Below are positions 52,485-53,505 of a stretch of 64,000 bases of DNA, one piece after another. The stretch's first letter is position 1; every line of letters starts with the position of its first letter. Below the pieces are notes generated by a model. That model made no database searches. It worked only from the letters and a program-made list of their open reading frames with translations, and was not told where the DNA came from. Where the stretch lies: sequence record PX393108.1; one strand, written 5' to 3'. The DNA comes from a phage. A program made the translations under genes and the position numbers.

Positions 52485-52560
52485 TGGTCGAGGCAGTAGG
52501 GATCGAACCTACGACCTAGGACTTAGAAGGTCCTTGCTCTTCCTTCTGAGCTATGCCCCG
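52485..52560 (-). tRNA. tRNA-Arg (anticodon UCU)
   Basis: Acceptor CGGGGCA/UGCCUCG, anticodon loop CUUCUAA, encoded CCA. Confidence 0.8.
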
Positions 52561-52564
52561 TAAT

Positions 52565-52640
52565 TGGGGTGACCGATGGGAGTCGAACCCATGACTACGA
52601 GAATCACAATCTCGAGTTCTACCAACTGAACTACGGCCAC
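52565..52640 (-). tRNA. tRNA-His (anticodon GUG)
   Basis: Acceptor GUGGCCG/CGGUCAC, discriminator C, anticodon loop UUGUGAU, encoded CCA. Confidence 0.7.
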
Positions 52641-52753
52641 ATTAATACCTACTCCAACAATCAAGATGTCTTCACACGAAATTAAGAGAAGAGTGATCAG
52701 TTCAACCCTATAATCGCGTCAAGTAGATATTAATGTGACAGTTGTCACAAATT

Positions 52754-52828
52754 TGGCGGACGTGATAGGATTCGAACCTATAACCAATCGCTTAACAGGC
52801 GATCGCTCTGCCATTGAGCTACACATCC
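52754..52828 (-). tRNA. tRNA-Asn (anticodon GUU)
   Basis: Acceptor GGAUGUG/CACGUCC, anticodon loop CUGUUAA, encoded CCA. Confidence 0.7.
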
Positions 52829-52832
52829 AAAT

Positions 52833-52919
52833 TGGTGGGGAGTGATGGAGTCGAACCACCCGAGTCGCAATGACAATGGATTTACAGTCCACACCGCTAC
52901 CTCTACGGGATAACTCCCC
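52833..52919 (-). tRNA. tRNA-Tyr (anticodon GUA)
   Basis: Acceptor GGGGAGU/ACUCCCC, anticodon loop CUGUAAA, long variable arm, encoded CCA. Confidence 0.7.
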
Positions 52920-52932
52920 TTAATTCTTAATT

Positions 52933-53007
52933 TGGTGGCCCTGGGTGGAATTGAACCACCATCTGGCGATTATGAGTCGCTTGCTTGAACCTTCCAGCTA
53001 CAGGGCC
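52933..53007 (-). tRNA. tRNA with anticodon CAU (Ile2-type or Met)
   Basis: Acceptor GGCCCUG/CAGGGCC, anticodon loop CUCAUAA, encoded CCA; T4 tRNA-Ile uses CAU. Confidence 0.7.
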
Positions 53008-53008
53008 T

Positions 53009-53084
53009 TGGTGCTGATTGACGGAATCGAACCGCCGACCTTCTCATTACAAGTGAGTTGCTCTACCTACTGAGCTAAATCAGC
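53009..53084 (-). tRNA. tRNA-Thr (anticodon UGU)
   Basis: Acceptor GCUGAUU/AAUCAGC, anticodon loop CUUGUAA, encoded CCA. Confidence 0.8.
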
Positions 53085-53089
53085 AAAAC

Positions 53090-53179
53090 TGGCGGAGGCG
53101 ATAGGATTTGAACCTATGAGTCGCCGGAGCGACTGCCGGTTTTCAAGACCGGTGCATTAAACCACTCTGCCACGCCTCC
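53090..53179 (-). tRNA. tRNA-Ser (anticodon UGA)
   Basis: Acceptor GGAGGCG/CGCCUCC, anticodon loop CUUGAAA, long variable arm, encoded CCA. Confidence 0.8.
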
Positions 53180-53181
53180 AG

Positions 53182-53255
53182 TCTCCATACAAGGATTTGA
53201 ACCTTGGACCTCCTGATCCCAAATCAGGCGCTCTACCAAACTGAGCTACACGGAG
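53182..53255 (-). tRNA. tRNA-Pro (anticodon UGG)
   Basis: Acceptor CUCCGUG with G-U pairs, anticodon loop UUUGGGA; CCA not encoded. Confidence 0.75.
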
Positions 53256-53265
53256 TAAATTAAAT

Positions 53266-53339
53266 TGGAGCGGATAATGAGAATCGAACTCACATCATCA
53301 GATTGGAAGTCTGAGGTAATACCATTATACGATATCCGC
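53266..53339 (-). tRNA. tRNA-Gly (anticodon UCC)
   Basis: Acceptor GCGGAUA/UAUCCGC, anticodon loop CUUCCAA, encoded CCA. Confidence 0.8.
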
Positions 53340-53344
53340 AAATT

Positions 53345-53431
53345 TGGTGCGAGAAGTGGGACTCGAACCCACAAGGAAATCATTCCGCAGCATTTTAAGT
53401 GCTGTGCCTTTACCAATTTGACCATTCTCGC
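53345..53431 (-). tRNA. tRNA-Leu (anticodon UAA)
   Basis: Acceptor GCGAGAA/UUCUCGC, anticodon loop CUUAAAA, long variable arm, encoded CCA. Confidence 0.8.
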
Positions 53432-53432
53432 G

Positions 53433-53505
53433 CTGGGAATAAAGGACTCGAACCTTTGCATCCTGGAATCAAAATCCAGTGCCTTACCAACTTGGCTAAT
53501 TCCCA
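53433..53505 (-). tRNA. tRNA-Gln (anticodon UUG)
   Basis: Manual cloverleaf: acceptor UGGGAAU/AUUCCCA, anticodon loop UUUUGAU, T-arm GGTTCGAGTCC; CCA not encoded. Confidence 0.8.

Follow-up and report, generated by a model that had tools for sequence, protein, structure and literature searches.

The closest described relatives of the locus studied here are the transfer RNA (tRNA) operons of the T-even phages. In T4 (X03016), the operon comprises tRNA subclusters I and II and the species 1 and species 2 RNAs, and a hairpin and open reading frame (ORF) 5, the homing-endonuclease gene segB, separate tRNA-Ile from tRNA-Arg. Brok-Volchanskaya et al. (2008) found that T2L, RB1 and RB3 have Met(CAU)-Tyr-Asn-Arg and no segB, that the preferred cleavage site of SegB is in the T arm of T2L tRNA-Asn, and that in T4 x T2L crosses segB is inherited and a ~1250-bp T2L block is lost in 99.6% of progeny, so that SegB homing erases Met-Tyr-Asn-Arg (PMC2330249). 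Here we describe the corresponding array in a stretch of 64,000 nucleotides (nt) of phage DNA (sequence record PX393108.1), which as a whole we call the window. Its minus strand carries 11 tRNA genes within 52485-53505. Very probably, this array is a segB-free, T2/AR1-type allele of the T-even tRNA operon, with the expression, roles and history of SegB homing and cassette exchange that we propose below.

An 11-gene tRNA array and its T-even relatives

Using ARAGORN on the whole 64-kb window, we obtained exactly 11 minus-strand tRNA genes within 52485-53505. Rfam family RF00005 independently matched the same 11 intervals, all above the gathering score, with 10 of the 11 at 59-74 bits (E values of 1e-10 to 1e-14). 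Coordinates, order and anticodons are those found by manual folding in an earlier reading made from the letters alone (the sequence-only reading), and the three genes that it had listed as extra to T4 were each upheld by both tools, with an ARAGORN cloverleaf and Rfam scores of 74.1 bits for Asn, 65.1 for His and 30.2 for Tyr (threshold 29). tRNA-Tyr scores low on account of its long variable arm, being of class II; the call is secure all the same, as the gene shares 85 of 87 positions with the T6 tRNA-Tyr, which has been seen by northern blot and is functional (PMC13096335). CCA is encoded in nine genes, Gln and Pro being those that do not have it. A permissive Rfam scan (E up to 10) of 51700-53700 detected no further tRNA, pseudo-tRNA or known RNA family, and inside 52485-53505 there was no credible protein-coding gene, the ORF list showing only short ORFs that overlap tRNA genes. 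The observation of 11 tRNA genes is confirmed; the array and the elements within it are as follows.

53432-53505, minus strand: tRNA-Gln(UUG); 67.4 bits; CCA not encoded; abuts tRNA-Leu; 89% identical to T4.
53345-53431, minus strand: tRNA-Leu(UAA); 100% identical to T4.
53266-53339, minus strand: tRNA-Gly(UCC); 100% identical to T4.
53181-53255, minus strand: tRNA-Pro(UGG); CCA not encoded; 100% identical to T4.
53090-53179, minus strand: tRNA-Ser(UGA); 100% identical to T4; CCA encoded (UAA there in T4).
53009-53084, minus strand: tRNA-Thr(UGU); 96% identical to T4; G40 where E. coli thrU has C40.
52933-53007, minus strand: CAU tRNA of T2 type, most likely tRNA-Ile2; matches T2 and RB27 at 75/75 positions, 61% identical to T4 tRNA-Ile.
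52833-52919, minus strand: tRNA-Tyr(GUA), class II with long variable arm; 30.2 bits; identity to RB27 87/87, T2 86/87, T6 85/87.
52754-52828, minus strand: tRNA-Asn(GUU); 74.1 bits; identity to T2 and RB27 75/75; G39 (U39 in E. coli).
52753-52778, minus strand: predicted preferred SegB target, the tRNA-Asn T arm GGTTCGAATCC through CCAA; full site GGTTCGAATCCTATCACGTCCGCCAA; fits the consensus GGTTCRANTCC...CCAR (PMC2330249).
52641-52753, minus strand: Asn-His spacer of 113 nt, a structured 5' leader of tRNA-His by folding and covariation.
52721-52734 with 52641-52655, minus strand: closing stem of the leader; its small hairpin is at 52735-52748 and its conserved interior at 52670-52708.
52565-52640, minus strand: tRNA-His(GUG); 65.1 bits; C73 and CCA encoded; no encoded G-1 (T at -1).
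52485-52560, minus strand: tRNA-Arg(UCU) of T2 type; 74/76 identical to T2 and RB27, 61% to T4 tRNA-Arg.

By sequence, the window comes from an AR1/JLBYU22-type Tequatrovirus. Across 1.2 kb its cluster and that of Escherichia phage JLBYU22 are 99.7% identical, and the Tyr-to-Arg segment of the window is 100% identical to that of phage AR1, also a Tequatrovirus. The 11-tRNA arrays of the AR1/Sf22-type Tequatroviruses (JLBYU22, UGKSEcP1/2, G4507) have the gene set and order of the window at 98-99.7% identity over 1.2 kb, share its 113-nt Asn-His spacer, ORF116, rnaD and rnaC, and show essentially no difference from it. At least 80% of the cluster is covered in 267 phage records and at least 80% of the Tyr-Asn-spacer-His-Arg segment in 187, and the His allele is present at 99% identity or more in 164. 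GenBank annotates the same 11 genes in JLBYU22 (OK272484) and vB_EcoM_G4507 (NC_054919); in the JLBYU22 record the Asn gene is mislabelled His. The array is therefore an already known, common and frequently annotated allele of the T-even tRNA operon, and the count of 11 that the sequence-only reading had thought noteworthy recurs in many records of T4 relatives. As it stands the array is of little import, since it is already in GenBank and SegB homing, published in 2008, accounts for how it differs from T4.

Gene content varies among the relatives. The window type has 11 tRNA genes and no homing-endonuclease gene; AR1 has 10, with a segD-like endonuclease gene where the window has tRNA-Pro; RB27 also has 10, His being missing; T2 has nine, with an ORF in the Thr position; T4 has eight and T6 seven, both with segB.

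T4 has the same eight anticodons and lacks exactly Tyr, Asn and His, as the sequence-only reading had stated. It shares with the window the genomic position, the middle promoter, homologous rnaD and rnaC genes and identical Leu, Gly, Pro and Ser genes, with Thr at 96% and Gln at 89% identity. It differs in having segB and a hairpin between Ile and Arg, in its Ile and Arg alleles, in a tRNA-Ser with no encoded CCA, and in the absence of ORF116 and ORF174 as well as of the three tRNA genes. The CAU and Arg genes of the window gave no blastn match to T4 tRNA-Ile and tRNA-Arg and reached 61% identity to them in global alignment, whereas they are 97-100% identical to their T2/RB27 counterparts. Because these two genes are far from T4 and near T2/RB27, the CAU-to-Arg block is an alternative allele rather than the T4 block with additions.

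The tRNA regions of T2L, RB1, RB3 and RB27 (LC348380, KM607000) match this allele closely: their CAU, Tyr, Asn and Arg genes share 97-100% identity with those of the window, segB is absent, and the preferred SegB site lies in tRNA-Asn. T2 and RB27 differ from the window in having no leader-plus-His cassette and a T4-type tRNA-Gln anticodon arm; in addition, RB27 has no ORF116, and in T2 an ORF replaces Thr. The window tRNA-Asn is identical to that of T2 (75/75) and matches the SegB consensus GGTTCRANTCC...CCAR at 52753-52778, so that it carries a predicted SegB target, cleavage and conversion having been demonstrated for T2L only (PMC2330249). A query with T4 ORF5 (segB) gave no blastn match in the window. 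T6 represents an intermediate state, with T4-type Ile, Tyr, segB and T4-type Arg. In its tRNA-rich region (Chihara et al. 2026, PMC13096335) tRNA-Tyr has the variable arm of the window gene, and the region differs from the window in segB directly 3' of Tyr, in the T4-type Ile and Arg, and in having no Pro, Ser, Asn or His.

These comparisons bear on the proposal of the sequence-only reading that three genes were inserted between the CAU tRNA and tRNA-Arg of a T4-like array. The position of the extras and the other eight anticodons are as that proposal has them. The genes on either side are non-T4 alleles, however, and T4 itself has segB and a hairpin at this place, SegB homing removes exactly this block (PMC2330249), and the His cassette is independent of the other two genes, so we regard a T4 array with three inserted genes as very unlikely. 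For Tyr and Asn the direction was probably the reverse, given that the SegB site lies in T2L tRNA-Asn (PMC2330249): loss in T4 by way of a homing endonuclease probably explains the difference better than gain in the window, a direction that follows from the published mechanism. Nor are the three a single insertion, since His is a separate insertion or deletion with its own 113-nt leader, missing from T2 and RB27.

The tRNA junctions across the array are repeats of CCA-AUU(U/A), which could serve as microhomology for cassette exchange. In the history that we propose, cassettes would have been exchanged at these repeated CCA-AUU junctions, SegB would have replaced the CAU-Tyr-Asn-Arg block in T4, and His would have been gained, or retained, as a separate leader-plus-tRNA cassette.

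The CAU tRNA, which the sequence-only reading had left as Ile2 or Met, has the acceptor stem GGCCCUG/CAGGGCC with C4-G69 and C5-G68, the pairs used by E. coli TilS. Its anticodon arm, AGCGA-CUCAUAA-UCGCC, resembles that of E. coli ileX (GGCGA-CUCAUAA-UCGCU), and the gene is identical to ileX at 58 of 76 positions and aligns poorly with elongator tRNA-Met. These features favour Ile2, and the gene most likely encodes a tRNA-Ile2 that would decode AUA after lysidine modification, by analogy with T4 tRNA-Ile.

In tRNA-Gln, all eight differences from T4, T2, T6 and RB27 fall inside the 17-nt anticodon stem-loop (CUGGA-UUUUGAU-UCCAG in the window, UAGCA-CUUUGAC-UGCUA in the others), and the remaining 57 nt are identical. 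The window-type allele is present in all four His-bearing genomes checked (window, AR1, G4507 and JLBYU22), and tRNA-Gln anticodon stems vary in almost every T4-like lineage. At the 3' end of tRNA-Ser (53090-53092) the window reads ...CGCCTCCGCCA with CCA and T4 reads ...CGCCTCCG followed by TAATTTT; with CCA encoded in the window and not in T4, T4 tRNA-Ser needs CCA addition and the window tRNA-Ser does not.

Codon demand and host defence

We compared the demand of 109 window ORFs (18.5 k codons) with that of 45 annotated E. coli K-12 genes (13.5 k codons). In the phage, the codons ending in A that the eight T4-type tRNAs decode occur 1.3-5.3x more often, with enrichments of 5.3x for AGA, 2.6x for TCA, 2.5x for ACA, 2.3x for ATA and 2.1x for GGA. 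Asn (5.66% against 3.49% in the host, 1.62x) and Tyr (4.58% against 3.25%, 1.41x) rank second and third in amino-acid enrichment; their codons AAT and TAT are enriched 2.7x and 1.9x, and the enrichment of both amino acids is slightly stronger on the plus strand, which carries late genes. The suggestion of the sequence-only reading that additional tRNAs may adjust decoding to host codon usage thus fits the eight T4-type tRNAs as well as Asn and Tyr, but not His, which is depleted. Under the explanation that we favour, the eight shared tRNAs would read those codons ending in A that are more frequent in this genome (35% G+C) than in E. coli, and tRNA-Asn and tRNA-Tyr would serve two of its most over-used amino acids.

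The other suggestion was that such tRNAs replace host tRNAs cleaved by anticodon nucleases. Septu EcB88 and retron-Eco7 cut E. coli tRNA-Tyr in the variable arm; T6 is rescued from Septu by overexpression of tRNA-Tyr or by SegB-driven amplification and is sensitised by deletion of its tRNA region, and T4, which has no tRNA-Tyr, fails to escape (PMC13096335). Because the window has no segB, amplification driven by SegB would be unavailable in cis to its phage. T5 tRNA-Tyr, which reportedly resists retron-Eco7 (PMC11555353), has the same variable arm as the window tRNA-Tyr, GUCAUUGCGAC. AriB, the nuclease of PARIS, cuts E. coli tRNA-Asn and tRNA-Thr after U36-A-A-U39-C40, with His(GUG) and Pro(UGG) as possible minor products, and a U39-to-A change abolishes its cleavage of tRNA-Lys (PMC12409363). 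At this site the window tRNA-Asn reads U36-A-A-G39-C40-G41 (U39 and C41 in the host) and tRNA-Thr reads U36-A-A-U39-G40 (C40 in the host).

Two of the extras are thus isoacceptors of nuclease targets, Tyr for Septu and retron-Eco7 and Asn, along with the shared tRNA-Thr(UGU), for PARIS. Both Asn (U39G, C41G) and Thr (C40G) differ from the host at the cleavage site, and the Tyr arm is of T5 type, though Septu still cuts the T6 tRNA-Tyr, which shares this arm; His differs from the host at position 41 only. The anti-defence tRNAs of T5 (Tyr against retron-Eco7; Lys, Thr and Asn against PARIS; PMC11555353, PMC12409363) have the Tyr variable arm and Asn G39 in common with the window. They belong to another phage family and another array, are otherwise ~60-85% identical to the window tRNAs and include a tRNA-Lys, which the window does not have.

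The anticodon loops are identical over all 7 nt to those of the E. coli isoacceptors in 10 of the 11 tRNAs, with the differences in the stems and the variable arm; evasion by anticodon-loop mutations (after van den Berg et al. 2023) was rejected on this ground. Colicin E5 cuts the four queuosine-family tRNAs, among them Tyr, Asn and His. Taken together, an anti-defence role has good support in the case of Tyr, is plausible for Asn and lacks support for His. Replacement of cleaved host tRNAs accordingly survives from the sequence-only reading for Tyr, through the near-identical T6 tRNA-Tyr and Septu (PMC13096335), and plausibly for Asn and PARIS; it does not extend to His, and the reported cut is in the variable arm rather than the anticodon. 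Because they are isoacceptors of host tRNAs destroyed by E. coli defence nucleases, tRNA-Asn and tRNA-Tyr would, in our preferred explanation, probably also act as a spare supply when Septu or retron-Eco7 (Tyr) or AriB of PARIS (Asn) destroys the host isoacceptors.

Each of these roles could instead be taken as the whole explanation of the extras. Were they kept mainly against defence, as spare or cleavage-resistant copies directed at Septu and retron-Eco7 (Tyr), PARIS (Asn and Thr, with His minor) and enzymes like colicin E5 acting on the GUN family, one could account for the Septu phenotypes of T6 and T4, for the T5-type Tyr arm and the G39 and G40 substitutions at the AriB site, for the listing of tRNA-His(GUG) as a probable minor AriB product (PMC12409363), and for the anticodon stems being the most variable part of these tRNAs between lineages, as in Gln. 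Yet nucleases that read the host-like loops would cut the phage copies too, the wild-type dose of T6 tRNA-Tyr is insufficient, no defence system is known to target mainly tRNA-His, and without tRNA-Lys escape from PARIS is not expected. We consider this account quite possible, though somewhat short of an even chance.

A more tentative place goes to demand alone, in which the three extras match AT-rich phage usage to the host tRNA pool. It draws on the enrichment of Asn and Tyr and of their codons AAT and TAT, and on the classical rare-codon pattern of the eight T4-type tRNAs, but it leaves His depleted and served by a tRNA without G-1 that is a doubtful source of His-tRNA, leaves the most enriched amino acid, Lys, with no phage tRNA, and sits poorly with close relatives that thrive on fewer genes (eight in T4, seven in T6, nine in T2). 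We think it improbable that the array is merely a selfish mosaic whose composition reflects homing-endonuclease traffic and cassette recombination, the extras being near-neutral passengers. segB, segD-like and other homing-endonuclease genes do lie in or beside the array in T4, T6, AR1, CM8, BP32 and Karamvirus, segB is significantly co-located with tRNA genes (PMC13096335), close relatives differ in having 7, 8, 9, 10 or 11 genes, and the region is non-essential (PMC2330249). Against this stand the 97-100% identity of Tyr, Asn and His in many isolates, the measured benefit of T6 tRNA-Tyr, and the compensatory evolution of tRNA-His across genera described below, which points to purifying selection.

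The explanation that we prefer, an allele of the T-even operon in which demand, defence and SegB history each have a part, has difficulties of its own. T-even phages can do without their tRNA region in the laboratory (PMC2330249), which makes whatever benefit the tRNAs bring a conditional one. The host codon sample (45 K-12 genes, 13.5 k codons) is small, and Lys, although the most enriched amino acid at 1.83x, has no tRNA in the array. T6 tRNA-Tyr is itself cut by Septu and its rescue required a raised dose (PMC13096335). AriB resistance of the window tRNA-Asn and tRNA-Thr is suggested by the substitutions at the cleavage site, and T4 needed T5 tRNA-Lys to escape PARIS (PMC12409363). His makes up 1.76% of residues against 2.42% in the host (0.73x) and 1.0% on the plus strand, and its tRNA has no G-1; it therefore fits neither demand nor simple replacement.

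The tRNA content of T-even phages now predicts part of their sensitivity to Septu, retron-Eco7 and PARIS, and a segB-free array with Tyr and Asn is relevant to the choice of therapeutic phages.

tRNA-His and its structured leader

In T2 and RB27, Asn is followed after 4 nt by Arg, whereas in the window Asn is followed by a 113-nt spacer, His, ATTA and Arg. Among the megablast matches listed for a 2.5-kb query, the spacer and tRNA-His were the only part matched (87-92%) in Klebsiella (Jiaodavirus) records, and a shorter query of leader end plus His matched Karamvirus at 92-95%. The arrays of Jiaodavirus, Karamvirus, Moonvirus and Roskildevirus carry the same leader-plus-tRNA-His cassette at ~87-95% identity, likewise with T at -1 and with the closing stem abutting +1. 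They differ from the window in that the cassette follows tRNA-Gln, in that the arrays hold 12-15 tRNAs including Lys, Asp and Trp, and in a leader interior that differs between lineages.

The 5' junction of tRNA-His reads ...GGTATTAAT|GTGGCCG..., with T at -1 and A at -2. In bacteria, RNase P cuts pre-tRNA-His at -2/-1 and keeps G-1 opposite C73; histidyl-tRNA synthetase (HisRS) relies on G-1 as the major identity element, and loss of G-1 cuts charging more than 100-fold (PMC5499578). E. coli hisR encodes G-1. The phage gene has the GUG anticodon and C73, C73-C74-C75-A76 being invariant in 11 lineages. T at -1 occurs in every examined member of the group (the Tevenvirinae genera Tequatrovirus, Jiaodavirus, Karamvirus, Moonvirus, Roskildevirus, Kanagawavirus and Aeromonas phage phiAS5), whereas 46 of 59 distinct viral tRNA-His genes in an IMG/VR sample encode G at -1. 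Because the gene lacks this identity element, the window tRNA-His appears a doubtful supplier of His-tRNA. A full-text literature search found no description of phage tRNA-His genes without G-1.

The gene has nonetheless been kept as a tRNA. Across 11 lineages, 98.3% of the cells in the cloverleaf alignment are paired and 12 of 21 pairs have changed on both sides; none of 500 shuffles reached the real value, and slid controls paired at 31-51%. By this measure the tRNA-His lineage is clearly under strong purifying selection as a tRNA.

The spacer upstream of it folds with a minimum free energy of -30.4 kcal/mol (z = -2.95 against shuffled sequence). Its last 15 nt (52641-52655) pair with 52721-52734 in a stem that ends at -1, and a stem ending at +1 or within 3 nt of it is predicted in all lineages examined. 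The interior varies in sequence; at one extreme is a 4-nt loop, in a 33-nt spacer, and at the other are multi-branched structures, in spacers of at least 95 nt. In the 11-lineage alignment of the stem, 95.8% of cells are paired and six of 15 pairs show changes on both sides, a value reached by 1 of 500 shuffles, with slid controls pairing at 42-56%. The inverted repeat can be extended by ~11 nt into tRNA-His (+1 to +11), giving 24-nt arms that are 83% complementary. Stems abutting +1 are found in 68% of tRNA-His genes without G-1, in 7% of those with it and in 6% of 580 other phage tRNAs. This link between a missing G-1 and an abutting stem is suggestive, most of the positives coming from one lineage. 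Upstream of Jiaodavirus tRNA-Asp a very long stem (runs of 26-31 nt) is predicted to end 2 nt short of +1; His is therefore not alone in having a long hairpin-forming spacer that abuts the tRNA after it.

Several other readings of the Asn-His gap were tried and dropped. The permissive Rfam scan (E up to 10) was empty there, on which ground a hidden or decayed tRNA was rejected, and gave no Rfam family for the leader. An internal promoter or terminator was rejected in the absence of any minus-strand site, the nearest candidate being a weak plus-strand match at 52742-52771, and inspection by eye showed no MotA box or late-promoter motif in the gap. Elsewhere in the window only weak arm matches with 2-3 mismatches were present, which does not fit a multi-copy mini-element with terminal inverted repeats, and a search of the 64-kb window for antisense targets of the conserved interior CACTCTTCTCTTAATTT gave nothing above chance.

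The leader may be a stable RNA left over from tRNA processing, comparable to rnaC and rnaD; it may direct 5' maturation; or it may be a cassette boundary. It is conceivable, though we put this forward only tentatively, that the leader is a functional RNA, either a third stable RNA of the operon, freed during tRNA processing (compare rnaC, rnaD and E. coli 3'ETS-leuZ), or a device for the unusual 5' maturation or identity of a tRNA-His without G-1; the tRNA might even act uncharged, for example as a decoy. A literature search found no published description of the leader. The G-1-less tRNA-His and the covarying leader helix may be the only new elements of the array, and a conserved tRNA-His of this kind behind a structured leader offers a testable entry to phage tRNA-His maturation and charging in E. 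coli.

Expression and flanking genes

The array lies on the early/middle-transcribed strand between the tRNA.2-4/ipI genes and the e.x genes, in an ORF order like that of AR1, T2 and T4. The elements around it are as follows.

53592-54116, minus strand: ORF174, unknown function, directly upstream of the cluster; phrog_2290, E 1.6e-68.
53593-53601, minus strand: MotA-box-like element TTTGCTTTA of the putative middle promoter 5' of tRNA-Gln, equivalent to T4 PM2; overlaps the ORF174 stop; aligned with the T4 PM2 -35 TATGCTT (X03016).
53575-53580, minus strand: -10 hexamer TATTAT of the same putative promoter; identical to the T4 PM2 -10.
52116-52466, minus strand: ORF116, unknown function, between tRNA-Arg and rnaD; phrog_3355, E 8e-54.
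52000-52116, minus strand: rnaD (T4 species 2 RNA) homologue; 94% identical to T4.
51856-51992, minus strand: rnaC (T4 species 1 RNA) homologue with a tRNA-like 3' domain; 97.8% identical to T4.
51781-51804, minus strand: intrinsic-terminator-like hairpin where the RNA operon ends; 10-bp stem (seven G-C pairs), then a T-run (TTTTT).

The MotA box and -10 of T4 PM2 are kept within an almost identical 95-nt stretch that runs to tRNA-Gln, and from the T4 annotation we infer that this element is a middle promoter. Downstream of tRNA-Arg come ORF116, rnaD, rnaC and the terminator-like hairpin. By analogy with T4, one leftward transcript would probably carry the 11 tRNAs, ORF116, rnaD and rnaC; it would start at the middle promoter with its MotA-like box, be joined by read-through from early promoters further upstream, and end near 51781-51804. 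Host RNase P and 3' trimming nucleases would then free the tRNAs, and CCA would be added to Gln and Pro.

ORF116 is present in T2, AR1 and the window and absent from T4 and RB27, in which rnaD directly follows tRNA-Arg. ORF174 is present in AR1, T2, RB27 and the window and absent from T4. The only matches of either ORF were to PHROG families of unknown function, with none in Pfam.

The tRNA-like 3' domain of rnaC gave a weak match to the Rfam tRNA-Sec model at 51856-51948. Within the rnaC region, the G4507 record annotates a 94-nt 'tRNA-Lys(ttt)', probably as an artefact; an extra tRNA-Lys of this kind was rejected for the window, as ARAGORN and Rfam call no tRNA in its rnaC.

Three minus-strand ORFs around the operon have similar N-termini: MKTYAEFLTEA (50565-51128), MKSYAQFLNEA (51434-51727) and MKTFKEFTTK (55070-55357). 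The shared N-terminus resembles the capsid-targeting sequence of T4 internal proteins. ORFs 50565-51128 and 51434-51727 match phrog_2280 and ORF 55070-55357 is an internal virion protein (phrog_4363), which suggests that a variable internal-protein locus flanks the tRNA operon on both sides.

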